Source: Eledone cirrhosa (taxonomy: Eukaryota). From it: a DNA stretch of 64,000 nt. Below are positions 8,060 through 54,100 of this stretch, piece by piece; position 1 is the first letter of the stretch, and the number at the start of each line of letters is the position of its first letter. The translations under genes were made by a program, and so were the position numbers. Location of the stretch: contig OZ024761.1 in the NCBI GenBank assembly GCA_964016885.1, forward strand, positions 17,422,001-17,486,000, written 5' to 3'. The notes under the pieces were generated by a model, which saw only the letters and a list, made by a program, of their open reading frames with translations, had not been told where the DNA came from and did not search any database.

Positions 8060-9041
8060 CTACAAGAAGCACTATCGGCCAATACATATATTTATAAATG
8101 TATATGTATATCGATCGACCTTACACACATGCACCTCTCTAAGACAATGCCACTGGACCGAGATCTTTGGCGCCACGGAGTAATACAGAAGACCTGCCCT
8201 CCCTATTTACAAAGCGGAACCTACAGTCAGTAGGCCCTTCTTAACCAAATATACACCCCAATCCACTACCCCTACCCTATCGTCCCACTCCCACCAACAC
8301 CACCCTCTCTCTATAAAGTTGGTACCACAACATCCAGTCCAAATTAATGAGATAATGAGATCGAGATCGAGATCATGTAGGTGTCACGAAAAAACACACA
8401 CAGTCCACGCTGTCATGTGGCCGTGTAGGTAACACGGTAAAAGGTTCCCAGTCCACACTGTAAATCTGGTTGGTGTTAGGAAGAGCATCCAGCCGTAGAA
8501 AACCTGCCAGATAGTCCTATACGAGCGAGACACGGTCACCCGACCAACCTTGCCTCAAGTGGGACAACTGCCATCTAACTCCTGTCCAACCCATGCTAGC
8601 GTGGAAGATAGACATTAAACGATGATGATGATGATGATATATATATATATATAAATATATATAAATATAAATTCATATTTATATATATCTCTCTCATAGG
8701 GTGTGGTAAAAACCAGGTAGACCCTAACCCACCAGAGTTCTCGGATCTGAAACGGCTGGAGCTCAGCCATCGGGGTCCTGAATCTTTTCATCATCATCAT
8801 CATTTATAATAAATGAATATATATATATATATGTATATATATATTTATATTAATAGTAATGTACTGGGTATTTGCTGGCCTTGTGCCAAATGTAGAAACA
8901 ATTAAGATTATATATATATATTTATATTAATATATATATATATAAATATATATTTATAAATATATATATATATATATATTTATAAATATATATTTATATA
9001 TATATATATATTAATATAAATATATATATATTTATATTAAT

Positions 9042-9078
<37 letters not shown>

Positions 9079-9097
9079 TATAAAATTATATTAATAA

Positions 9098-9140
<43 letters not shown>

Positions 9141-9240
9141 AATATAGACATAGAATATTCGAAAATATTCAGTATGTTTATAATAAACATTTTGAAGACC
9201 TAATCGCTATAGAATAGAATACGTCACGTATTACAATTAG

Positions 9241-9329
9241 ATTCTCGATAAAAGCAAGGGAAGTAATCTACGCGTTTCATTCTTGTTAGAAATCATCAGG
9301 ACTACATATCCAGTGCTTTTATCGAGAAT
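9241..9329 (-). ncRNA. Hammerhead ribozyme in the inverted copy (9130-9416) of the 310-bp unit
   Basis: Reverse complement of 9506-9594. Confidence 0.8.
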
Positions 9330-9414
9330 GACACAGCTAGAGACTTATAGAATACTTAGCTGTGTACAGGAACTGGTTTGAAAGAGCGGTTGCCGGTCCG
9401 GCAGAAATTAGAAA

Positions 9415-10976
9415 TTCCAATTTCTAATTTCTGCCGGACCGGCAACCGCTCTTTCAAACCAGTTCCTGTACACAGCTAAGTATTCTATAAGTCTCTAGCT
9501 GTGTCATTCTCGATAAAAGCACTGGATATGTAGTCCTGATGATTTCTAACAAGAATGAAACGCGTAGATTACTTCCCTTGCTTTTATCGAGAATCTAATT
9601 GTAATACGTGACGTATTCTATTCTATAGCGATTAGGTCTTCAAAATGTTTATTATAAACATACTGAATATTTTCGAATATTCTATGTCTATATTCACATA
9701 TATATCGCTATTTCAGAGCATTTATTCCAATTTCTAATTTCTGCCGGACCGGCAACCGCTCTTTCAAACCAGTTCCTGTACACAGCTAAGTATTCTATAA
9801 GTCTCTAGCTGTGTCATTCTCGATAAAAGCACTGGATATGTAGTCCTGATGATTTCTAACAAGAATGAAACGCGTAGATTACTTCCCTTGCTTTTATCGA
9901 GAATCTAATTGTAATACGTGACGTATTCTATTCTATAGCGATTAGGTCTTCAAAATGTTTATTATAAACATACTGAATATTTTCGAATATTCTATGTCTA
10001 TATTCACATATATATCGCTATTTCAGAGCATTTATTCCAATTTCTAATTTCTGCCGGACCGGCAACCGCTCTTTCAAACCAGTTCCTGTACACAGCTAAG
10101 TATTCTATAAGTCTCTAGCTGTGTCATTCTCGATAAAAGCACTGGATATGTAGTCCTGATGATTTCTAACAAGAATGAAACGCGTAGATTACTTCCCTTG
10201 CTTTTATCGAGAATCTAATTGTAATACGTGACGTATTCTATTCTATAGCGATTAGGTCTTCAAAATGTTTATTATAAACATACTGAATATTTTCGAATAT
10301 TCTATGTCTATATTCACATATATATCGCTATTTCAGAGCATTTATTCCAATTTCTAATTTCTGCCGGACCGGCAACCGCTCTTTCAAACCAGTTCCTGTA
10401 CACAGCTAAGTATTCTATAAGTCTCTAGCTGTGTCATTCTCGATAAAAGCACTGGATATGTAGTCCTGATGATTTCTAACAAGAATGAAACGCGTAGATT
10501 ACTTCCCTTGCTTTTATCGAGAATCTAATTGTAATACGTGACGTATTCTATTCTATAGCGATTAGGTCTTCAAAATGTTTATTATAAACATACTGAATAT
10601 TTTCGAATATTCTATGTCTATATTCACATATATATCGCTATTTCAGAGCATTTATTCCAATTTCTAATTTCTGCCGGACCGGCAACCGCTCTTTCAAACC
10701 AGTTCCTGTACACAGCTAAGTATTCTATAAGTCTCTAGCTGTGTCATTCTCGATAAAAGCACTGGATATGTAGTCCTGATGATTTCTAACAAGAATGAAA
10801 CGCGTAGATTACTTCCCTTGCTTTTATCGAGAATCTAATTGTAATACGTGACGTATTCTATTCTATAGCGATTAGGTCTTCAAAATGTTTATTATAAACA
10901 TACTGAATATTTTCGAATATTCTATGTCTATATTCACATATATATCGCTATTTCAGAGCATTTATTCCAATTTCTA
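9415..10976 (+). mobile_element. Tandem array of 5 x 310-bp units, each with a hammerhead ribozyme (non-LTR retrozyme / Penelope pLTR-like)
   Basis: Period 310 (TTTATTCCAATTTCTA at 9721, 10031, 10341, 10651, 10961); no differences seen between units; flanked by (TA)n. Confidence 0.85.
9506..9594 (+). ncRNA. Type I hammerhead ribozyme (repeated at +310, +620, +930, +1240)
   Basis: Stem I GTAGTC/GATTAC extended by a 16-bp helix ATTCTCGATAAAAGCA/TGCTTTTATCGAGAAT; CTGATGA at 9536; stem II TTCT/AGAA; GAAA at 9557; palindromic stem III ACGCGT; GUA triplet, predicted cleavage after 9566. Confidence 0.85.
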
Positions 10977-11429
10977 TATATATATATTTATTGATATATG
11001 TTTGTATGTATATATATATATATTTATTGATATATATGTTTGTATGTATATATATATGTCAATTTCATAACCTTTCACTCTCTCTCACTATATGTGTATA
11101 TATATATATATATACACATATAGTGAGAGAGAGTGAAAGGTTATGAAATTGACATTCACATAATAAGGTAATCAATTTCATCTAATTGATATCAAAGCGA
11201 CATCAATTCCTCGTCGTTTTTCAAACCACGTTTGCGTCTAAATTTTGCTCTAAGTAAAACACGATTTGTCTCCCTTTGGAAAAACATGATACGCCTGAAC
11301 AGTGAGCGAGTCTTGTTTGTTACTCAGGAGTTTCGCCTGTTTATCATAGAGTTATCCACATAAAAAAGTACTCTTTTCTCTCAGCCACATACATATGGCT
11401 GCAAACTCACGCTATAATAAATAGGGTTG

Positions 11430-11905: not shown

Positions 11906-12129
11906 TTTACAAATATATATATAGTAATAATAATTATGACGACTAAAATCCGAAGAGGCCTCGATAAGGATTATAGAAGATCCCGTAAAAAGGTGAAAGC
12001 AGCGATCTTTTGCTTAAACTTTAATCTGTACAAATAATCAATATATATATAAATATGAACTTATAAATAAATATATATTCAAAAATATATTGTAAGATGA
12101 AAAAAAAGACACCTTCGAAATTTACCAAG

Positions 12130-15518: not shown

Positions 15519-15599
15519 TCATTCTATCTTGCTATTCTCAATCTGTTTCGTGCTAGGAATGTAGACTTTGAAGGAGAAGTTTGAACGTGAAAAGGAACC
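15519..15599 (-). CDS. POLE2: POLE2 exon 15, terminal ([26 protein letters not shown])
   Basis: CAG acceptor, TGA at 15521-15519; matches GSF.RS.FSFKV..PS...E.SK. Confidence 0.93.
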   Translation of the reverse strand, partial: GSFSRSNFSFKVYIPSTKQIENSKIE

Positions 15600-18500
15600 C
15601 TGAAAATAATGAATTTTAAAAAAAGATTTTTTAATCATTAACATTTAAAAAAAGATTTTTTAATCATTAACATTTAAAAAAAATTTTTTTATATCATTAA
15701 CATTTAAAACAAAAATTTTTTATATCATTAACATTTAAAAAAAAAAAATTTTTTAAATCATTAATATTTTAAAAAAAACATTTTTAAATCATTAACCCTT
15801 TCGATATCAAACTGCCAAAAACCCCACTCCTGGTTTTGTGATACAAAAAGTTATTTCAAAGTGTTTATATTTATCTAAAAAAAAAACCTCCATCCTTTGT
15901 TAAGTTACGTTACTAACACTAGTGTAACCCTTTAACATTTACATTACTCTATATATACTAATGTATTTTTGTGGTAAAGGCTTTATCTTACATAATTATC
16001 TCACATAAAACTGAATCTACGAGAGTAAGGATAAAAGGCAAAGCTAACCTTGGCAGGATTTGAATTCAGAATGTAACTGTGTGCTGCAAAGCATATTGTC
16101 TGCCGCTCTACCAATTTGGCCAATCCACTGCCATAATGTAATAACAATTGTTTCTATTTTAGGCACAAGGCCAGCAATTATCCAGTACATTACTGGTACT
16201 TTATTTTATCAACCCCGTAAGGATGAAAGGCAAAGTTGGTTTCTGATTTAAGCACAAGGCCAACAGTTTGAGGGAGGAGAAAGTAGATTAAATTGACCCC
16301 AGTGTGTTACTGGTACTTTATTTTATCAACGCTGTAAGGATAAAAAGCAAAGCTAACCTTGGTAGGATTTGAACTCAAAACGTAAGGGAACATAACAATA
16401 TGCTGCAAAACATAGTGTCCGACGCTCCACCGATTCTGCCAATCCACCGCTCTTGTGATGGTAAAGATAAAAAAAAAAAGATATGTCTTTGTTGAAGTTA
16501 CTTACAGGGTTTGTGATGATGCAGTCGAGAGAATTCACTGTGAAGCTGTCATATTTACCGGCACAGACAAGTAAATCTGGTAAGGGGTAGAGTTGCAAGC
16601 CACAGTCGTAAGCCCAATATACAGGACACACATGCAGTGGAAGTGGACAGAGATGACCTTGGGATATTACTGTCTTCGCAAACTGGAAAAGAAAGAAAAA
16701 AAATATATATATACATATATAAATCAGGATGCATTCAGTTTGAAACTGGTTAGACCAGTAGTAGAGTATGGTTATATTATAAAGAGTCGGAACCCGATGG
16801 CTGAGCTCTTGCTCTTCCAACAGCTAGTTCCAGACTGCACAGCACCCCTCCACTCTTTTCGTCATTTGCTCTGTGAATCTCAGTGATTTCAGATCAGTGT
16901 TCACCACCTCTGCCCAGGGCTTCCTTCCACTGTCTTTAAATTATATGGTAAATAAGAAGGTTGACGGGCCCCTGTTTTTAGACAGCTGTGAAATCCTTAC
17001 AAGATGTCAAGAGTTAAAAGAAAGACTTACATGAGAAGGGACATCCCCAGAGGTTGGGAACCGGATACAACTCCGGCACAGCTTGGTGACAATGTCTTCA
17101 CGGAAGACAACAATCTCCTGGGTACAGTACTGGATCCGGCAAGGATTGCTGGTGAATATGGAGTGAGGTATCTTCTTACGGAAATATTCTGTGATACAGT
17201 TAGGAATGGCAGGCCTGCAGAATAAGAAATATCCAAGAAATAATTTTTTTATATTAACAAAAAATAGCAGTGCCCCAGCATGGCCTCAACTTGTTGGCTA
17301 GAACATGTAATATAGTAAAACAAAACGAATGTATAAATAATATGATAAACAAGTATATAATATGGTATATTTCTATTGCTATCTTACTAAACCCCCCAAA
17401 TTCTTAATTATTTTCAAAATCATTTGAAAAAAAATTGTTGTATAGCACCAGGTTAGCTTTAATCATTGTTATGACTAGGGCCAGACTTTCACCACTGAGA
17501 CCTAAGCTATATGAAATTTGAGGCCCTACTCTAAAAATATTTAAAATAACTATACATGATTATTATTTTTTATATTAATGTTAATGATAATGAATGCAAC
17601 TTGCCCACACTGTAAAGTGGTCCTGTAGGTGTCACGACAAAAAGCACCCAGCACACACTGTAAGTGTGGTTGGTGTTAGGAAGGGCATCCAGCTGTAGAA
17701 ACCAAGAAAAAAACCAATCCTGTATGAGTAAGTCATGGTCATCGGACTTGGCTTATCTCACAATGGGGCAACTCGTCTAACCCAAGCTAGTGTGGAAAAA
17801 GAACGTTAAACAATAATGATATATATATATGTGTATATATGTATTTAAAGAATAAAAACTAATGATAAAATAAGAAAATATATTCTAAAAAATGAGGCCC
17901 CTCCTGAGGGTGTGTGACCCAAGGTTATAGCTAAGCCCAGCCAGCACTGGTTACAACTCACATCCATGTAGGATTAGCTGGCCTTCTACAAGCTTTCTTG
18001 ATAGGCCCTGCAAAATGAGGTGTCTTACTCAAGAACACAGCATGTAGACCTGTTCAAGAATCAAACCCATACCCTTGATATCATCAGTTCAACACCCTAA
18101 CAGTTAAGCTACTCAACATAAGATTAAATGTAAGGTTTGGTTATAAAATGATGAAAGTGCAGTGTGTGATACTTACCGTGGGAGAATGTTTGCAGGCCCA
18201 GGATCCAAGGGACCAGGGACAAATATGAACCTGCAACTGTCTATAAGGTTCTGATATTTACAGATAATATCACACAGCTCATTAAATGACTCTGAAACAA
18301 CAAAACAAAACATTATTAGGTTAGCTTTACGGTCTGAGTTCAAATCCTGCCAAGGTTAACTTTGCCTTTCATCCTTACGGGGTCGATAAAATAAAGTACC
18401 AGTAATACACTGGGATAATTGCTGCCCTTTGTGCCTAAAGTAGAAACAATTATTAGGTTAGCTGTACCTTTCATCCTTATGTATTGGCCTTTGCCTTTCC

Positions 18501-18631
18501 CAATATCATATATAGTGTATATATGTCACTGGTGCCAAGCAGTATCAGCCTTTATCATGCCTTGGATAGCATTATATTTAGTGAATAAATCAATTGTGAC
18601 AATACCTGTGCCCTTGACATCGGATATAATG

Positions 18632-18663
<32 letters not shown>

Positions 18664-19190
18664 TAAAAAATAATGAATAAAACAATGAAACAGTTCCTTA
18701 TATTAAACAAAAAAAGTTCATTATTTAACGATCGTTTCTAGGATATATATGTGTTAGAATTGGCATGCATATTCAACAGATCTATGTACAAAATTATACA
18801 AAATTATACAAACTATCAAAATTAAATATACATACCAAACACATATATATGCCGTCTTCAGAAATATATATGTGTTTGGTATGTATATTTAATTTTGATA
18901 GTTTGTATAATTTTGTATAATTTTGTACATAGATCTGTTGAATATGCATGCCAATTCTAACACATATATATCCTAGAAACGATCGTTAAATAATGAACTT
19001 TTTTTGTTTAATATAAGGAACTGTTTCATTGTTTTATTCATTATTTTTTAATATTTTATCTTGACTCTGTATTCCGTTTATCTTTCACCGAAAGTGATTT
19101 TTCATTGCATCTCTTCTTTCCATGATATCCGGACTACATTGAGTTCTTCATACGGATTGGACACTACCGTAAACTCTTGGTAGATTTATC

Positions 19191-19229
<39 letters not shown>

Positions 19230-21710
19230 AACCATGTTCATGAGTGATGAAAGTCGGGAGGCTGAATTAAGTGCAAGAATTGCAGGAACTGGTGCAGTGT
19301 TTCGTCAGCTTCAGCATTTCGTAATAAGAAGGGAAGTAGATGTAAAAGCCAAACTCGCTATCTTTAATCCGCTATTGATGCCAACCCTTAACTCTGGTCA
19401 TGAGTCTTGAGTAATGACCGGAAGAATATCAAAATGGGGTTCCTCCGAAGAGTCTTTACTTTAGAGTAACATTACTTGATAATGTGTGTAGCTTAGAGAT
19501 CAGAGAGCCATTCCATGTAGAGCTGCTACTTCTCCGAATTGAGATATCACAGCTCCAATGCTATGGGCATGTACTTAGAATGTCTCGCTTGGGGAGGGAT
19601 CCAGCTGGTTCAGTTGGAAACGGTTGCTTCTGATAGGGCCCGCTGAAAGGAGTGTTTGAAGACTCGGCCCCAAAGACCCTCTCAGGAATAAGTGGGTGTA
19701 AAAGAAGGCTAATGCTAAGCTGTATCTGTCTAGAAATTTTCACTGAGATGACAGCCCCCTTACCTCGAAGTATTTTGATGTGGTTAGTCTGGTGACAGAG
19801 AGACGTGAAGTTACCACAGAAGATAAAAGCTACAGGCGGGTGTTCAGAGTAGCCACTGAATAAAATTTTCAACTTGTCTATCACCTGCAAAAATAAAATA
19901 ATAGATAAAGTGGTATAGTTAATACGAAGTATTGTGAGATATGTAATAAATGACTAAGTTTTTCAGAAAGCCAGTACAATGTGGTACAAATATATAATAT
20001 TGAATCAATGAAATTTTGATATTATTTATTTTGAGAACAATACCTTAACATAAATATGAGCAGCTGATTTGGCTGGTTTGAACAGAAAGAAGTGAGGGAA
20101 TTCTGGCTGGATATGGCCAGTTTAAATGCTAAAGGACTTAATACAAACCGAATAAACAAATAATTATAAAAAAAAAAAACCCCAACAGCTTTATATGGAA
20201 ACCTTTAGATTAACGGTTACCGAAATAATTAGTCGTAGCACTAAGACAAAAAACCAGTAATTTTGGGTGGAAGGTAAAGACGACTTCATCATACCCATTA
20301 CTTGACTGGTACTTAATTTTTGTTGACCTTGGTGGGATTTGAACTGAGAGAGTAAAGAGCCAGAACAAATACACTGTTAAGGCATTTGTCTGATGCTATA
20401 CCGTCTCTGCCATTAGCTCAAAGGTGTCAGATAGTGGCTAGGGATCAGCTCAGAGATGATAGTGTCCAGAAGAAAGGAGGAGAGGTGATGGTTGAGAGGG
20501 GGATGGGTGAGAAAGAGAGAGGGGTGAAAAAATGAGACAAGGTGGGGTGAGAGACACATAGAGAGACTGAGAGGCAGAAAGAGAAAGAAAGAAGAGGGAG
20601 GGAGTTAAACTTACTTTCGGCTCATCTAACCAAACATCGGAAAGAAGGACAAACATGGACTCCTGGTTCTCAACTTCAAGGTGCCGCAGTTTGTCAGAGG
20701 CCTTAGCACAGGTTTTGAGAGGGCCTCCAAAGAAATTGATGTTGCCAAAATAGGACCTGCAAGACAAAGAAGTCAGAATATGAAGAAATGAATGATGAGA
20801 GGGTGGTGGGGGTTGTTGTTGTGTGTGTGGTGGGGTGTTGAATACATTGCAATACTCCCAGGTTATAATAGTTGTTTAACCCTGGTCAACTCTATGGTCA
20901 AAGACACTCCAGATATCACAGCTTAACCCTGGGTCAACCCTATGGTCAGAGACACTCCAGACATGACAGCTTAACCCTGGGTCAACCCTATGGTCAAAGA
21001 CACTCCAGATATCACAGCTTAACCCTGGGTCAACCCTATGGTCAGACACTCCAGACATGACAGCTTAACCCTGGGTCAACCCTATGGTCAAAGACACTCC
21101 AGACATGACAGCTTAACCTTGGGTCAAATCTAAGGTCAGAGACATTAGGGTTGACCCAGGGTTAAGCTGTCATTTCTGGAGTGTCTTTCGGGTTGATAAC
21201 GGTCTTATTTACATATATACAGGTAGTTAATGACCACAGGTGGGACTGGACAACAGCAGCTATACATATATGGATATAGTTGACCAGAGGCAGACGTGTA
21301 ACAGAGAGCAGCTATATATACATATACAATAGTTGACCACAGGTGGGAGTGTAAGACAGCAGCTATATATATACAGGTAATAGTTGAATACAGGTAATTG
21401 TTGACTAATGATAGAGGTGTAACAGAATGAAGCTATATATATATATATATATACAGGTAGTTAATGATCAGACACAGGTGAAAATGTAGTGTAATCTAGT
21501 GAAGAGGAATGAGATTTACCTGGTGACAGAGGCCGGTTCAGGAGGAGGGAAACCAAATGCTGTCACATGGAAGATGCTGTCCTCATACCAACCCTCGGCC
21601 AGGACAAAACAGTTCTCAGTGAAGAGTCCAGTGTGGAAACTGTAGCACAGCTGGGTCAAGGAATCATATACAGATAGTGGATCGGATTCATAGTTGATTG
21701 TAAAAACTAT

Positions 21711-24644: not shown

Positions 24645-26150
24645 AACGTTAGAATATGTGTAATAAGGCCAAGACAATGCAGATATGGACATAGAAAAAA
24701 GAATGCAATAGTGAAAGATATTGATGAGAATTCGTCTTTCACCTTGAATTTATTTAAATGTCCTTAATTTTCGAGATAATATCTCTTCTTCGGAGGGAAG
24801 TAAAAGTCTCAGACGCTGGTCTGAGACTTTTACTTCCCTCCGAAGAAGAGATATTATCTCGAAAATTAAGGACATTTAAATAAATTCAAGGTGAAAGACG
24901 ACTTCTCATCAATATCTTTCACTATTGCATTCTTTTTTCTATGTCCATATCTGCATTGTCTTGGCCTTATTACACATATTCTAACGTTTATACCTCATTA
25001 CACAATGCTTCAAGTGAACTATAACCTCCTCCCATATATATATATATATATATACACACACATATACAATGGACTTCGTGAGTTTCAAGTGTCTGCAACT
25101 TATACAAAAGCCAATATACACACACACAGTGGAGGTGTGTGGCCTAGTGGTTAGTGTGTGGGACTTACAACTATAATGCTGTGGGTTCAATTCTTGGATT
25201 GGGTTGTGTATTGTATTCATGAGCAAAACACTCCATTTCACATTACACCAGAACACTCAGCTGAAAATTAGTACCAGTAATAGCTCAGGGTTTAACCCTG
25301 TGATGAACTGGTGTCTTGCCCATGGAAAAGTCTTGTACTCTGTCCTAGGATAGCACTGTCCTGATGAGCCTCGGGCTCAAGACAGACTTTAGACTTTAGA
25401 TACACACACACATACATGCCTCAGTTCGAAACAGGTAAATGGTGAAATCTAAAATGAAGGACTTACCTGATATAGTAACATATAGCGATCCTTAAACAAC
25501 TTCCAGAGATCATTTGGTTGACCATGAAGTAGAGGGGCAGACAGGTCAAGCTCATTGTTTCTGTTCACAAAATATAAATCATATAAATATATGATGGTGG
25601 TAGTAAATCATCATCATCATCATCATCATCATCGTTTAACGTCTATCTTCCATGCTAGCATGGGTTAGACGGGAGTTGTCCCACATGAGGCAAGATTGGT
25701 CGGGTGACCGTGTCTCGCTCGTATAGGACTGTTGTATCTGGCAGGTTTTCTACGGCTGGATGCCCTTCCTAACACCAACCACGTTTACAGTGTGGACTGG
25801 GAGGTTTTTACCGTGTTACCTACACGACCACATTACAGCGTGGACTGTGTGTTCTTTTTGTCGTGACACCTACATGACCTCATTAGATTGAACTGGATGT
25901 TGTGGTACCAACATAACTTTATAGAGAAAGGGGTGGTGTTGGCGGGAGTGGAAGGATGGAGTAGGGGTAGTGAGTTGGGTTGGAAGGGCCTACTGACTGT
26001 AGGTTTTGCTTTGTAGATAGGGAAGGCAGGTTTTCTGTATTACTGCATGGTGCCAGAGATCTCGATCCAATGACATTGTCTTAGAGAGGTGCAAGTGTGC
26101 AAGGTCTACACAAATACACATTATACACATACATACATACATATGAAAAT

Positions 26151-26181
<31 letters not shown>

Positions 26182-29100
26182 CTTACACACACACACACAT
26201 ATATATTATACTTACACACACATACATACCTATATATATATACACATATATAATATACAAAGATATATATACAATCATTGTTTTTATTATCTGGCTCTTT
26301 ACATTCTATGTTCAAATCCCGTCGAGGTCAACTTTGCCTTTCATCCTTCTGGGGTTGACAAAATAAAATAACAGTCAAGTACTGGGATTGATTTAACTCT
26401 TCAGCATTTCCATTACTCTATATCTACTATTATATTTTCATGGCAAAGGCTTTATCTTCCATAATATCGAATCTATGAGATTTTGATAATAATACCTGAA
26501 CTTCCAATCAGTACGAGCAGCCGGTTATGGCCAGTTTGAACAGAAAGAGGTGAGAAAATTCTGGCTGGATACGACTGATTTAAATGCTAAAGGGTTAATC
26601 AAATTTTCCCTTCCTTCCTCTAAAAAATTTGCTTAGATTAGAAATCAATGTTAGAGGTAAGAATGTTTGGAAACCGCGGAGTGGGGAGACCCAAGATGAC
26701 CTGGGATGAGGTGATAAAAGCCGAGCTTACCCAATTACACCTCTCAAAGACAATGACACACAACCGTGACTTCAGGCGTCACGCAGTAATACAGAGTACC
26801 CGACCTCCCATGGGTACATGCTGAAGCATATAAACAATATGCCCCCACACCCCCCACCGCAAGGTGGTCGTGGAGGTGCCACGGCAAAAAAGCACCCAGC
26901 CCACACTGTAAAGTGGACGTGTAGGCGCCACGGAAAAGCACCCAGCACTCACTGTAAATGAGGTTGGTGTTAGGAAGGGCATCCAGCTGTAGAAATCAAG
27001 CCAGATCAGTTCCTGTATGAGCAAGGCATGGTCAGCCGACCAGACACTGCCCACAACAGGACAACCCGTCTAACCCATGCTAGCGTGGAAGAACGGACGT
27101 AAAACGGTGATGATGATGAATATATATATATATATATATATATAGGAACGAGTAGGACCCTAAGTATTGAGTACTTTGGTGCGTTATGGTCCATCTGATT
27201 CCTTACCACATTTCTTTCGTTATATATATATATTTATTAAAATAACAGATTAAAGTTTAAGCAAAGAATCGCTGCTTTCACCCTTAACGGGATCTTCTGA
27301 AACTAAAAATATTAATAAATGGTATACGATGCTGATGATAGCTAATAAGCTTGAAACTAGTACATCGTTCCTGTGTCAGTGTTGAACAAAAGGGCGACGA
27401 TGGTGTTAGGAAGGGCATCCAGCTGTAGAAATCAAGCCAGAATCAGTTCCTGTATGAGCAAGGCATGGTCAGCCGACCAGACACTGCCCACAACAGGACA
27501 ACCCGTCTAACCCATGCTAGCGTGGAAGAACGGACGTAAAACGGTGATGATGATGATGATGATGAGGTAAGATCTATCCCACACTCTCATCCACCCAACT
27601 ACCTTCATTAGAGAATAGAAACTGGATTAATATTTAATTAAAAGATAATTTACTTACAAAATGAACTTTTTCCGTTCATCGACATAAGTGTACCTCGGCA
27701 CAGAGAAGGTGTCAATCACACTAAAGGCATTCTCTCTGGAAACAAACAAAAAAAAGAGAGACATTAACCATTTTGAGACTAAACTACCATAATACAATCA
27801 TGAATACAAGCGGCCGAAATGAGATTCCCCCGAAGGGTCTTTGAAATAACTGTTTCTACTTTAGGCACAAGGCCAGCAATTGCTCAGTGCATTACTGGTA
27901 CTTTATTTTATCGACCCCGTAAGGATGAAAGGCAAAGTCAACCTCGGCGGGATTTGAACTCAGATCATAAAGGGACGCAACTATGCTGGAAAGCATGGCG
28001 CGCGACCCTCCACCGATACTGCCAATCCACCGCCAGATATAGATTTAATGGCTGCCCCTTAGTTATACCATAATACAATCATGAATACAAGCGGCCGAAA
28101 TGAGATTCCCCCGAAGGGTCTTTGAAATAACTGTTTCTACTTTAGGCACAAGGCCAGCAATTGCTCAGTGCATTACTGGTACTTTATTTTATCGACCCCG
28201 TAAGGATGAAAGGCAAAGTTAACCTCGGCGGGATTTGAACTCAGATCGTAAAGGGACGTAACTATGCTGGAAAGCATGGTGTCTGACCCTTTACCGATAC
28301 TGCCAATCCATTTGAAATAACATTACATGATAAAGTGCGTAACTCGTAGATCAGAGAGTCACTCCAGGTAGAGCCGCTACTTCTCCGAATTGAGAGATCA
28401 CAGCTCTGATACTATGGATATGTGGTTAGATTGTCTCAAGAAATAATTGCTGAACAGATTTTACAGGCAAAACCAACAAGGTAGGAGACCCCAGAGGTAG
28501 ACCCACCCCAAGCAGGGTGGTTGGATAACATCCATGAGCTTGGCTGGTCACATTTGGGGATCCAGCTGGATCAGTTGGAGATAGTTGCTTCTGACATGAC
28601 CTGTTGGCGGGAGTGTTTTGGGACTCTGCCACCATGACCCTCTCAGAAATAAGTGGGCGAAGAAGAAGAACCATTTTGATACTTAACTACTAGAAACCAT
28701 CCCTGGTTCTATGCTGCAAAATTTTTATTCATCTAAAAGTCTTACATTTTATGCAACAATCTATTTTTAGGTTATTTCCAAACACCAACTTGATAATGAG
28801 AAAGTTAGTGTTTATATATAAATTTGAGCAACTTCCGTCCGTCACAAAATAATTGTTTCTACTTTAGGCACAAGGCCAGCAATTACCCAGTGCATTACTG
28901 GTACTTTATTTTATCGACCCCGTAAGGATGAAAGGCAAAGTCAACCTTACGGGGTCGATAAAATAAAGTACCAGTAATGCACTGGGTAATTGCTGGGTAA
29001 CGTCCGTCACAAAATAATATACTCATACAAGCATCAGCATGTTGAAAAAAACTTCTAGTATTATTAAATTCCTCCTCTAGCAGCGACAAAGTCTGGGGTC

Positions 29101-42317: not shown

Positions 42318-45300
42318 TGTATGTATGTATGTATGTATGTATGTATGCATGCATGCACAAACAAAAATAAAACAAGTAAGATTGCTTACCAAAGTATTTT
42401 TTCAACATGGTCCTTGTAGGTTACAGTAATAGTTCAATAAGAAGGATCAAATCATAGTATCCAGGTGAAATATAATAGAGTAATATTATTTTTAAATGTA
42501 TAGGAAAAACTAACACTAGTTTTTTTTTGTCTTTATTCTATCTCATTACTTTTTTCATAGCTAATTTTTTTATTTTTTATTTTTTTAATTATTTCCCACT
42601 CTCTCTCTGTCCCTCTAAAATATATCCTTTCTGCCTCTTCTCTTAGTCTGGTTGCCTTTTATTCAGAGCAGATTGTAGTAGAAATATTTTTACTGCAGGA
42701 TGAGTAAACTTATCTTGTACTTTGAAATCTTTGAGAAGAAATGCAATATTTAATGTATTGCTAGTGAATAGGCATAATAATAATATTATTATGCAACTAG
42801 CATTATGTAGACTTATATTGTATTGAAACATATGTTAAAGAATGAACTGTTGATAAAATTCTTCACTTTTTTTCTATACTTTACGCCTAGTGTTTGTTTT
42901 TCCAATACATTTAAATATATATACGTATATATATATGCGTATATATATATATGTGTGTGTATATATATATATGTGTATATATATATGTGTATTTGTATAT
43001 TGTTATACTTTGGGAGGGTCATGCTGCCAATAAAAACACACGCACCAGGTGGATTTCATTTCAATTTATTATAAGTTTCTGGTTGGTTTGATAACCGGAT
43101 GGTTGTTTAAATATTGGCAAAGCCCTTTCGTCACAATATATAAACAACCATCCGGTTATCGAAGCGACCAACCAACTGGAAATTTATAATAAATTGAAGT
43201 GAAAAACCAACAAGTGCATGTGTTTTTATTGGCAGCATAAATACAATACAGAAATACAGAAGTAATAGAAATAAATAAATACATACACGCAAACATAAAT
43301 TGCACAAAACTTTCCTATATTACAGCCCCACGTTATACCCTAACGGATAGTACGATCTATACGTGGATATTTTACGTCTTGATGTGGGAGCTAAGTATAT
43401 GTTTTGTTTATACCATTACTTATTTGCATAGGTAAGTATATATTACCCATATGTTTTGTGAAGGTACGTATACCTTCTCGTACGTATATTTGATTGTTTA
43501 TGTTATGGCGTATAATTTTATATATTCTGGTACATATGGTTTGGTTAAATGTATACGGGAGTTTTGCGTCTGTGTGAGTATGCAGGTTCGTACGTATGTA
43601 GGGTGTGTGTATATGTGTACTTCATGTTTTGGTTGACTTACATCTCCGAACATTTGTGTATTTACATGTAGGTATGTGTGTGCGCTTGTTATATACGTAT
43701 TTATTTATTTATATACGTTTATTTAATTATTTATTTATTTGTATACACGCATAGACACACAGACATAGCTATATGTGCGTGGTTTTGTATACCTATGGTA
43801 AGTGTTTTCGTGTATGCTTGTGTATGTACGTATTTGTTTGCGTGTATGTATTTATTTATTTCTATTACTTCTGTATTGTATTTATTTACTTTGTTCTTAA
43901 CTCTGAAGCGGAGATTCATTCGGTCTCCTAGTTAGAATTTCTGTCTACGACTTCTGCTATACCATTTACGTGGTTTTGTCTTTGCGTGCAATTGTTCTCC
44001 ACGCTTCACATATGACGTATTATCTTCGTTTTTTTTCGTTCATTGCCGGTGAACGTCTCTATGAACCACCTAAGAGAATATTAGTCTACGACCTCTTTTA
44101 TACCATAAACGTGGTTCTGTCTTTGCATGTAATTGTTTTTCACCGCTCCTATTAATGACGTATTTTATTCGTTTTTTCCCATTCTTTGCCAGCGAACGTT
44201 TCCACGAACCAAAGTATCGTCTTCCTGTCTTCCTCCGGTTGCAACGTTTTTTGAAATATCCACTTCTGCGTTTACAGATTGACTTTATATATATATATAT
44301 ATATATGGAGGCACATGGCTTAATGTTAGTGCATTGGCCTTGCAATCGAAAGGTTGTGAGTTCAATTCTCAGACCAGGTGTTGTGTTGTTTCCTTGAGCA
44401 AGACACTTTATTTCACATTGCTCCAGTTTACTCAGCTGTAGAAATGAGATGATAGGGACTGGGGTCCCTATCATTCCACTGTAAAGTGGTCGTGGAGGTG
44501 CCACGGCAAAAAAGCACCCATCACTCACTGTAAATGAGGTTGGTGTTAGGAAGGGCATCCAGCTGTAGAAATCAAGCCAGAATCAGTTCCCGTCCCACCC
44601 TTGCAAGCAGGGAAAAGCGGACGTAAAATGATGATGATGATATAATGTGGTCGTGTAGGTAACACGGTAAAAACCTCCCAGTACACACTGTGAATGTGGT
44701 TGGTGTTAGGAAGGGCATCCAGCCGTAGAAAACCTGCCAGACAGTCAGTCCCATATGAGCGAGACACGGTCTCCCGACCAATCTTGCTTCAAGTGGGACA
44801 ATTCCCGTCTGAACCCATGCTAGCTTGGAAGATAGACGTTAAACGATGATGATGATATATATATACTATATAAATGGCAAATTCTGTCTGTCTGTGTATA
44901 ACCAGTTGGCGCCTACACCAGTGATCCAATCCTGATGGAAGTTTACGCACATGTTAAGCTAATATTCAGAAACAAGTCTGGCTAATTGGATTTCAATAAA
45001 AATATGGAATTTTTCAATGGGGGACATCCTTACAATGGAGGAGAAAGGAGAAGACGTTTCAATTAGAGAGGGAGAAGAGGAGATACTACTACTACATGTT
45101 AAACCCTCCCTCCCACTACTCCCCTTCCTCCTCCCACAACTCAGTCCTCCAAAACGAGGCAACAACTTATTAGAAATATACATGAAGAAATTTCAAACAA
45201 AGCAGACAACAATTTAATTTTGGTTGACGACTGAACAGATGTCTTTGTATATATGTATATATCACATCCACTGATATAGATTCTGAACACATGCACATGC

Positions 45301-51441: not shown

Positions 51442-54100
51442 ATATATATATGTGTGTGTGTATGTATATATGTGTGAGTGTGTATATATATATATATATA
51501 TCTGTGTGTATATATATATCTGTGTGTTTATATATATTTATATGTGTATATATATAAAAAAAAAAATATATATATATGTATGTATATATATGCATGTCTG
51601 TGTATATGTATGTATATGTGCGTGTATGTATGTGTACACTTTGTGTGTGCGTATACATGTGTATGTGTGTATATGTATATATCTGTGTGTGATGATGATG
51701 ATGATATATATACATAATTAAACACATATACAGGGTAAAGACCCACTTTGGTCACAAATGGAGTTTGCACCTAGACACAAGTCCAAGCATGGTTTTTTGT
51801 GAAAGGTCAGCAGTCGCCCATGCATACCATTCTCCCTTCTCCACACCACCAATGTTGTCCAAAGGAAAGACAATGGCTGATACAGCTTGGCCCCAGCAAC
51901 GTCACAACTCATTTCTACAGTTGAGTGAACTGGAGCAACATCAAATAAAGTGTCTTGTTCAAGAACACAATGCAAAGCCCAGTCCAAGAATCGAACTCAC
52001 AACCTCATGATTGTAAGCCTGATGCTCTAACCACTAAGCCATACGCCTTCACAAACACATATATACATACATATATGTAATTATATACAACATTTATAAC
52101 AATCAAATTGTGTTTAAGGCATTTAATGGCCTACGATTGTTTCATCCAGATATAGGTCTGGAATCATCAGAGCATATAAAAGGTTAAAACAAATATAAAC
52201 CTTTTATATGCTCTGATGATTCCAGACGTAAATCTGGATGAAACGATCGTAAGCCATTAAATGCAATAAACACAATTTGATTGTTATTTATGTTGTATTT
52301 CTGCTCTGTATTATATCTGATATTTTACATTGAGCTACTTATCTTACTAGTAATCGGGTAATATACAATATTACCCTTATCTTATTTATATTTTTATATA
52401 TAAATATAACTATTACTATAATTATAAACATACATTTCCAACAGGATTTCGTGCTTCCTCTATTTGTTTCTCCATAATCAACTTCCTCCTTTCAAAAATC
52501 TCATCTTGGCTCAATGCAAATCTGGACAGCACCTATTGTAAACAATAACAACAATAATGATTTCTACTATAGGCACAAGGCCGGCAATTGGAGGAGAGGG
52601 GATAGTCGATTAAATCGACTCCAGTACTTGACTGGTACTTTATTTTATCAGATGAAAGGCAAAGTTGACCCCTGTGGGATGGGATGGTACTTTATTTTAT
52701 CAGATGAAAGGCAAAGTTGACCCCTGTGGGATGGGATGGTACTTTATTTTATCAGATGAAAGGCAAAGTTGACCCCTGTGGGATGGGATGGTACTTTATT
52801 TTATCAGATGAAAGGCAAAGTTGACCCCTGTGGGATGGGATGGTACTTTATTTTATCAGATGAAAGGCAAAGTTGACCCCTGTGGGATGGGATGGTACTT
52901 TATTTTATCAGATGAAAGGCAAAGTTGACCCCTGTGGGATGGGATGGTACTTTATTTTATCAGATGAAAGGCAAAGTTGACCCCTGTGGGATGGGATGGT
53001 ACTTTATTTTATCAGATGAAAGGCAAAGTTGACCCCTGTGGGATGGGATGGTACTTTATTTTATCAGATGAAAGGCAAAGTTGACCCCTGTGGGATGGGA
53101 TGGTACTTTATTTTATCAGATGAAAGGCAAAGTTGACCCCTGTGGGATGGGATATGAATGCAGAACACAGAGAATTAGAGCAAAGCAAATATTCAGGGTT
53201 GGTTTGGTATGGAAAGGTTCAAAACAGGGCAGACATAGAAATATGTTACCATGACAACATAGAAATATTATGCCATGGCAACATATAAGATTGAAAAGAA
53301 GTGCATTACCATGGCAAACAGCTTAGCCCCCTCATCCCCTATTTGGTTGCTCGCTAGTTCCAAGTCCAGCAGAGTTTGGTTCTTCCGCAGTGCCTGAAAA
53401 CAATATAAATATACATATATATATATGTATGTGTATATTATAAGTGTAAATATCTATATATCTATATCTATATATATATATATATGTAGAAGTTATATTT
53501 AATTTGTTGGGATACAACAAGCAAATATTTTTATAACTGATATAAAGCACTCAACAAATTTTTGGAGTAAAAATACAATATATTAATAAATGGAAACTAT
53601 ATTTATAAAACCATATTTATTTCATTATACATATTTCAAGGACACCAAAGCAAATTATGGTGCGCTTTCATCAGATAAAATATAATATAGATCAGTTTCA
53701 TAAACAAATATTGACATACCCTTAAAAGAATGCGACCATGTATGTTGGAAGCTCCCGGATAGTGGGGTTACTAATTGTATTATTGGTCTATTAAGCAAAT
53801 TAGTGTCGGAGAGGTTATATATATATATATCATCATCATCACCGTTTTGCGTCCATTCTTCTACGCTAACATGGGTTAGACAGGTTGTCATGTTGTGGAC
53901 AGTGTCCAGTCAGCTGACCTTGTCTTGGTCTTACGGGAACTGATTCTGGCTTGATTTCTACAGCTGGATGCCCTTCCTAACACCAACCTCATTTACAGTG
54001 AGTGCTGGGTGCTTTTTCGTGGCGCCTACACGTCCACTTTACAGTGGGAAGGGGGTGGGGGCATATAGTCTATATGCTTCAGCTTCGGCTTGTACCCGTG

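Follow-up and report, generated by a model that had tools for sequence, protein, structure and literature searches.

The locus at 9130–10976 of the window (the whole 64,000-nt stretch of Eledone cirrhosa contig OZ024761.1 analyzed here) is built of identical 310-nt units, each with a hammerhead ribozyme motif, and raises the question of how such an array is copied and inserted. On the copying route of animal retrozymes, the main text of Cervera and de la Peña (2020; PMC7229834) goes no further than to name Penelope-like elements (PLEs) a strong candidate for the helper, and the text of a 2026 preprint links retrozymes to PLEs by pLTR homology, leaving the mechanism unresolved (Li, Clavereau and Pollet, bioRxiv 10.64898/2026.07.22.740005). 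The locus is one of more than 1,000 near-identical insertions of a young, high-copy, non-coding 310-base repeat family, and the reaction can be traced in their ends, breakpoints and haplotypes.

Structure of the Array and Its Flanks

Tandem repeat finding in the window (Tandem Repeats Finder) gives a period of 310 nt at 9414–10976 with 5.0 copies and 100% matches, and the five array copies are one identical string. With the unit (GC 34%) defined as 9422–9731, this plus-strand segment comprises 5.04 head-to-tail units and is termed the tail arm. An inverted, minus-strand arm of 287 nt (9130–9416; unit positions 308–310 and 1–284), termed the no-tail arm, is 100% complementary to 9419–9705 around an axis at 9417–9418, and 3 nt (9414–9416) are common to both arms at the inner junction. 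Repeat finding and arm comparison thus confirm the five identical units and the inverted copy between (TA)n tracts described in the earlier note, and the absence of an ORF reported there is true in the sense that none longer than 30 aa lies inside the unit.

The left (TA)n target tract (8909–9137) overlaps the end of the no-tail arm by AT homology. This arm terminates in an internal (AT)4 run, fused to (TA)n; the run occurs once per unit (9698–9705, plus strand, in unit 1) and is the no-tail start site of the second arm. The other end carries the "tail" (10946–10976, plus strand), 26 nt restricted to the tail arm plus 5 nt of a minor end variant, and adjoins a (TA)n-rich target tract at 10975–11057. 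A plus-strand block just downstream of the tail end position (9422–9466) is strongly conserved in alignment with an older sister family (see below) and is a candidate reverse transcriptase (RT)-recognition site, by analogy with the PLE protein PAc, which requires RNA 3′ of its start sites (Frangieh et al., 2024; PMC11167929). The head-to-tail joint is present in contigs of all four sequencing runs examined, which come from four studies, and the no-tail end joined to TA was seen in contigs of one of them.

A gene for a DNA polymerase alpha/epsilon B subunit occupies the minus strand, with exons at 15,520–20,880 and PF04042 on one exon, and its stop codon lies ~4.5 kb from the array; by its motifs, the gene appears to be POLE2-like. 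Beside the array, a perfect inverted repeat of ~45 bp centered on a TA run (11,057–11,154) gives spurious Rfam microRNA matches. Elsewhere in the window, a 52-bp sequence is repeated 10 times with 100% identity (52,633–53,153).

The Predicted Hammerhead Ribozyme

A type I hammerhead, with its core and three stems assigned by hand, is present in consecutive units. In unit 1 (9530–9572, plus strand), the core consists of CTGATGA (9536–9542), GAAA (9557–9560) and CGCG-TA (9561–9566); stem I has 6 bp (9530–9535/9567–9572), and a 16-bp outer helix (9506–9521/9579–9594) together with a distal 3-bp helix delimits a ribozyme domain (9506–9594, plus strand) that recurs every 310 nt. The corresponding plus-strand motifs of units 2 to 5 are located at 9840–9882, 10150–10192, 10460–10502 and 10770–10812. 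Cleavage is predicted after 9566, 9876, 10186, 10496 and 10806, and the earlier note had placed these sites correctly. A sixth, minus-strand hammerhead in the inverted arm (9263–9305) mirrors 9530–9572, with a predicted cut between 9269 and 9268.

Two features of this motif had escaped the earlier description. Stem II has 4 bp with U·U at its base in place of the canonical G10.1–C11.1 closing pair, which is absent (U·U in the window, A–U in 17 of 58 arrays), and stem III has only 2 bp and is palindromic. In folding predictions, the palindromic stem III forms a 6-bp intermolecular duplex (−9.5 kcal/mol) and no hairpin alone. Dimer-active animal hammerheads described in PMC4209133 have such a stem III arrangement, and the axolotl HHR_Amex2, as presented in PMC7229834, has U·U at the stem II base, cleaves poorly as a monomer and cleaves efficiently only in dimeric form. 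By these features, the window hammerhead belongs to the weak type and probably acts as a dimer. The release of four 310-nt monomers proposed in the earlier note is a prediction, for a ribozyme that looks weak as a monomer.

In the Rfam search suggested in that note, Hammerhead_1 gave no match up to E 1, and all six copies, including the one in the inverted arm (9249–9314), matched HH9 only weakly, with 19.2 bits (E 0.25) where the gathering score is 52. Folding exceeds that of shuffled sequences both for the monomer (z −5.4; 0 of 100 shuffles as good) and for the ribozyme domain (z −5.8; 0 of 200). RNAalifold applied to 11 sequences of the young and sister families recovers the hammerhead, with both-side changes in 6 of 6 stem I pairs and 3 of 3 stem II pairs. 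Covariation extends to 26 of 66 pairs overall, a level reached by 0 of 500 shuffles and compared with 2–6 in slid controls; the 11 sequences form two related groups, so that the shuffle figure overstates their independence. Within the 43-nt ribozyme, the nine substitutions at the array level are all compatible with the fold or hit free positions (P 5e-6 to 7e-5), and 8 of 16 single-unit substitutions break it. This comparison of sequences indicates selection on the ribozyme fold among spreading haplotypes and not among single-unit variants. No array-level variant falls in the 11 invariant core positions, which is not significant alone (27 variant positions, ~1 expected).

Further hammerheads occur in the window and at other loci of the genome. 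A second hammerhead repeat family in (TA)n (window 27,332, plus strand; locus L034, 11,250–13,000) also has U·U at the stem II base and a palindromic stem III, and its monomers are separated by TA tracts. A hammerhead with a canonical G–C-closed stem II is present at window 8,048 (minus strand) and, as the same motif, at L040 2,352. Two pairs of diverging hammerhead-like motifs (window 52,170–52,213 and 24,793–24,840) are probably short two-armed insertions of other PLE-related families. A short element with a hammerhead stem II nearly identical to that of the 310-nt family (74% over 80 nt) was found at L177 4,650–4,860, L169 6,830–7,030 and L045 8,121–8,190; every copy starts slightly upstream of the core, by a few bases, and the element has its own tail and no-tail ends. 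A third, more distant relative of the 3′ hairpins of the unit, with its own palindromic-stem hammerhead, lies upstream of the match at L184.

A Dispersed, High-Copy Repeat Family

An exact 38-nt ribozyme pattern has 4,200 matches in the genome and its reversed control has none, so that the repeat forms a dispersed multicopy family. The last base of the unit joined to (TA)n (the major tail end) gives 1,034 exact junctions, and the tail end extended by 5 nt gives 75 matches genome-wide, including the window, for 1,109 tail ends in total. The no-tail end, ~26 nt shorter and joined to (TA)n, has 1,230 exact matches. These junction counts indicate at least 1,200 insertions, and at ~nine units per insertion the genome is estimated to contain more than 10,000 units.

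Non-coding tandem units of ~300 nt, a conserved type I hammerhead, dispersed high copy number and clonal arrays (see below) support the retrozyme identity proposed in the earlier note; as judged from the assembly, the repeat has every genomic feature by which a non-LTR retrozyme is recognized. Closed 340-nt contigs in X1, X4 and X6, runs of unspecified kind, were not counted as RNA circles, as tandem DNA yields such contigs as well. No RNA record containing the unit was listed, a result without bearing on its expression.

Insertion Anatomy

Insertions were followed from both kinds of end on contig C1, where all sampled loci (74 tail and 35 no-tail) are located. Among the first 75 tail ends, 74 were followed, and the one skipped (L031) is two-armed. 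Two diverging arms were found at 68 of the 74, one arm at three, an insertion longer than the sequence fetched at two and an N run at one. One arm reaches the tail of the unit, the other stops ~26 nt before it, and the inner breakpoints are random; all 66 inverted arms traced to their end stop at the AT-rich run of the unit, without the tail. No-tail ends that have no exact tail partner (n = 35) comprise 22 two-armed and 12 single-armed loci and one unresolved locus, and in the 22 two-armed loci the tail ends, where reached, lie a few bases off the major site. Targets at the insertions sampled are (TA)n or AT-rich. The anchoring patterns demand TA; the opposite ends, and a separate set of loci not selected for TA, are likewise (TA)n or AT-rich. 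Median arm lengths are 1,150 and 971 nt and fit an exponential distribution, both arms are multi-unit in most loci, and arrays of more than 20 units exist.

Inner junctions were scored at 67 loci (excluding L205, which is complex) by exact-match walks against the window unit, so that some inserts, and long overlaps at internal hairpins, are imprecise. Linear monomers would be expected to pile up breakpoints at the ribozyme cut; this pile-up is absent, since the breakpoints are spread over the unit and 4 of 134 lie no more than 5 nt from the cut, where 4.8 would be expected. Both breakpoints lie within 10 nt of each other in only 6 of the 67 junctions (~4.5 expected), so that snap-back of a single cDNA is rejected for the family. 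Because two arms with random breakpoints are found family-wide, the near-hairpin junction of the window is one such insertion in which the breakpoints nearly coincide by chance. Of 39 junctions that lack an insert, 28 have an overlap of ≥2 nt, against 18% at random.

At L048, a 273-nt sense piece of another retroelement is captured between the arms, which, as a sequence, supports RNA templates and template switching. This insert (L048 3,099–3,371) corresponds to the 5′ part of a non-LTR retrotransposon, and its 39 best other copies all lie within a few Mb of contig C25 (19–24 Mb).

Craig et al. (2021; PMC8557442) give as hallmarks of PLEs an inverted 5′-truncated copy and a tail that is confined to one end. 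In vitro, the PAc protein cleaves AT-rich DNA and extends from both strands, and its reverse transcription starts at two internal RNA sites, which delimit the tail; ribozyme cleavage is dispensable for insertion in vitro, where unprocessed RNA is used (Frangieh et al., 2024). An autonomous Hydra-type PLE family with a CxCX5C linker in the same genome produces this two-arm shape too, with an 88-nt tail. The two-arm tail/no-tail structure is thus the signature of PLEs, and since most insertions are two-armed and tailed as PLEs leave them, the repeat is likely a parasite copied by a PLE enzyme. The earlier note recorded the inverted copy and missed that it is the second arm of a standard Penelope-type insertion; it also overlooked that the ends of the window array are fixed reverse-transcription start points rather than ribozyme cut points.

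The Template: Circle or Multimer

The haplotype record of the arrays bears on the form of the RNA that was copied. Across 58 arrays (537 units), 26 haplotypes were distinguished; deviation within an array is 0.19 changes per unit, against 3.4 differences between arrays, and the same haplotype fills both arms in 43 of 47 arrays. In 10 arrays, a variant absent from the other 57 is present throughout the full units of both arms (as many as 21 of 21); such variants are private among these 58, of more than 1,000 arrays in the genome. The base at 9664, common to all six copies in the window, is the majority base in none of the 58, though L031 has it. This clonality favors repeated copying of one unit. 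The earlier note had drawn rolling-circle reverse transcription from the identity of the five units, which is weak evidence alone; the family-wide haplotypes are the real evidence, and they favor rolling-circle copying, though not as the exclusive route.

Mixed arrays number 11 of 101. At L223, L241 and L341, the two arms carry the same variant in the unit of equal rank, counted from the outer end, a pattern that a monomer circle cannot explain and that needs an ordered multimer; such templates are indicated in 3 of 76 arrays. The arms differ from each other at L219 and L250. Four long arrays (L071, L210, L227 and L361) contain periodic variants, which suggest later local duplication. Minor variants at matched positions number 140 in the 76 arrays, and only 6 of them are common to both arms; 3 of ~75 distinct minor variants recur in another array; unit-level differences are therefore rarely inherited.

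The principal alternative retains the two-arm insertion by a PLE and takes the template to be a multimeric RNA transcribed from an existing array, linear and for the most part uncut, so that clonality would stem from long homogeneous masters grown by local duplication, with a hammerhead that cuts rarely or serves another step. The same-order variants of the three arrays above, the periodic variants and the arrays of more than 20 units fit such a template, as do the use of unprocessed RNA by PAc in vitro and, in the text of Li, Clavereau and Pollet (10.64898/2026.07.22.740005), the proposal of local amplification and the lack of cleavage in 8 of 9 Xenopus dimers. It is nevertheless less probable, though not negligible: matched minor variants are seldom common to both arms or found again in another array, at least 26 homogeneous masters would be needed, and the ribozyme fold is conserved among spreading haplotypes and not among single-unit variants. 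We read the templates as mostly monomer circles, with some multimers.

Search for the Helper Element

The genome is rich in TA-targeting PLEs, with 10,595 and 54,455 first-look endonuclease candidates, for ~110 of which the flanks were inspected. No autonomous PLE with the 310-nt unit was found among 50 GIY-YIG loci, nor was the unit found at 30 loci of a young PLE or at 30 loci of Hydra-type PLEs. The linkage to a Penelope RT/GIY-YIG ORF considered in the earlier note is likewise absent: a PLE chimera, or an RT/GIY-YIG ORF joined to the young-family repeat, was found at none of 71 resolved tail loci and none of 35 orphan no-tail loci. An nhmmer comparison detected no homology of the pLTR of the candidate helper to the young or sister unit, and Pfam assigned no family to four of five PLE fragments.

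The sister family is older and collinear with the unit (1,484 matches of one motif), with the same tail and no-tail ends, and at two loci it is fused without a TA spacer to PLEs that have a CxCX5C linker. At L041, the tailed arm of a PLE 3′ end and a no-tail sister arm meet in inverted orientation, with no TA between them. The PLE at L310/L325 is truncated; it extends from RT across its pLTR and passes directly into one sister unit, which ends at its tail in (TA)n, and the remainder of the PLE tail is absent downstream. The PLEs at L325 and L326 have the CxCX5C linker, a C-terminal GIY-YIG domain, and CxxC and CxH motifs flanking E and N; by these motifs, the sister-family partners are assigned to the Hydra clade. 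The two old chimeras are suggestive, and no proof, as to the helper of the young family; most likely that helper, too, is a Hydra-clade PLE.

At L045/L068, a run of exactly 200 N separates an arm from a young PLE; this case was rejected as helper evidence because a second 200-N run at L333 suggests scaffold gaps and because all 20 inspected truncated copies of that PLE lack an inverted arm of their own in the flank. This very young autonomous PLE (L045 5,281–8,075; L265–L294) forms single truncated arms in (TA)n, unlike the two-armed families; it has 1,214 candidates, and at least 26 copies are identical over 216 nt among the matches listed. Within the window, 3′-end fragments of a Hydra-type PLE family lie at 43,923–44,286, 27,232–27,309 and 11,922–12,029.

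The unit could instead be the pLTR of an unsampled autonomous PLE, with the arrays as its truncated termini. Xenopus retrozymes resemble PLE pLTRs in the text of 10.64898/2026.07.22.740005, and the flanks seen represent a small part of the endonuclease candidates, yet this origin is improbable. Throughout 109 insertions traced from one end or the other, units succeed one another with no ORF sequence among them; moreover, the autonomous PLE families seen in the genome have pLTRs unrelated to the unit, and the arrays move without such a parent even if it exists.

Proposed Mechanism

Copying by a PLE enzyme from a circle is the preferred reading. We consider it reasonably probable that the locus is one insertion of a young 310-nt hammerhead repeat, made by a PLE enzyme reverse-transcribing into (TA)n, probably from a monomeric RNA circle read repeatedly. 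Arrays would first be transcribed, and neighboring hammerheads are predicted to pair via the palindromic stem III and to cut out 310-nt monomers that a host ligase would close; excision and circularization by host ligase have been shown for other animal retrozymes. The PLE endonuclease/RT would then nick both strands of (TA)n, one nick priming at the tail end and the other ~26 nt upstream in the (AT)4 run, in keeping with the fixed ends of the insertions. From each start, the RT would copy until random fall-off, at a median of ~1 kb, passing the ribozyme site without stopping, as the breakpoints record. Joining of the cDNA ends by microhomology or short inserts would yield the two diverging arms observed, and a minority of events would use uncut or multimeric templates. 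More tentatively, a hammerhead-made circle with no kinship to its helper may be read round by two RT starts of a Hydra-clade PLE at once, and each insertion would then be a twin-primed rolling-circle fossil.

An assembly or DNA-level artifact (a collapsed satellite, a fold-back read or a Helitron-like tandem repeat) would suit the 100% identity of the window units, the near coincidence of the two breakpoints, which resembles a hairpin read, and a unit count that comes from the assembly alone, but is very improbable given more than 1,000 dispersed insertions that have haplotypes, lengths and breakpoints of their own, the head-to-tail joint and TA-joined no-tail end in independent runs, and a covarying RNA structure.

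Relation to Known Elements and Implications

By its sequence features, the repeat is a non-LTR retrozyme, a class already known, including from a mussel, and not an autonomous PLE. The metazoan non-LTR retrozymes described in PMC7229834 likewise have non-coding tandem units (170–400 nt, GC <45%), one type I hammerhead per unit and thousands of copies, and the axolotl HHR_Amex2/Rtz_353 of that paper is alike in U·U at the stem II base and different in sequence. The words "inverted," "octopus" and "cephalopod" do not appear in its main text, whereas most insertions of the Eledone repeat, known here from the genome alone, show the PLE two-arm and tail signature. The text of Li, Clavereau and Pollet (10.64898/2026.07.22.740005), in which no mollusc is sampled, treats vertebrate retrozymes as PLE derivatives, and the Eledone repeat is similar in its tie to, and co-occurrence with, PLEs. 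However, the link presented there is pLTR homology, with arrays as later local amplification, whereas the present link is insertion anatomy, with no pLTR homology found and both arms mostly multi-unit.

Hydra-clade PLEs (as described in PMC8557442) and PAc/Poseidon (PMC11167929) share partial tandems, an inverted 5′-truncated copy, a tail at one end, (TA)n targets and two internal RT start sites with the present insertions, which differ in the lack of an ORF, in being pure multimers of one unit and in a tail of 26 nt. Chlamys elements such as MRC1 (in the account of PMC8557442) are also non-coding PLE parasites with multicopy head-to-tail insertions; they generally have the 3′ sequence of their helpers and mostly lack hammerheads, whereas the present family has a conserved hammerhead and no helper homology was found. 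No description of a cephalopod retrozyme, or of two-arm tailed retrozyme insertions, was found in the accessible literature, which includes few subscription papers and lies outside Repbase and the supplements of PMC7229834, PMC8557442 and the preprint; the giant squid genome paper counts only 235 hammerhead matches, and a plant retrozyme review repeats PLEs as candidates.

The family provides unusually direct evidence, from the genome, of the way such elements move. It pins down two RT start sites precisely and suggests a clade for the helper, and together with the insertion record these make circle versus multimer templating, and trans-mobilization by PLEs, testable in a PAc-type in vitro assay. 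If true, twin-primed reading of a circle would identify the missing mobilizer of animal retrozymes and would explain how the tandem and inverted ends of PLEs form.
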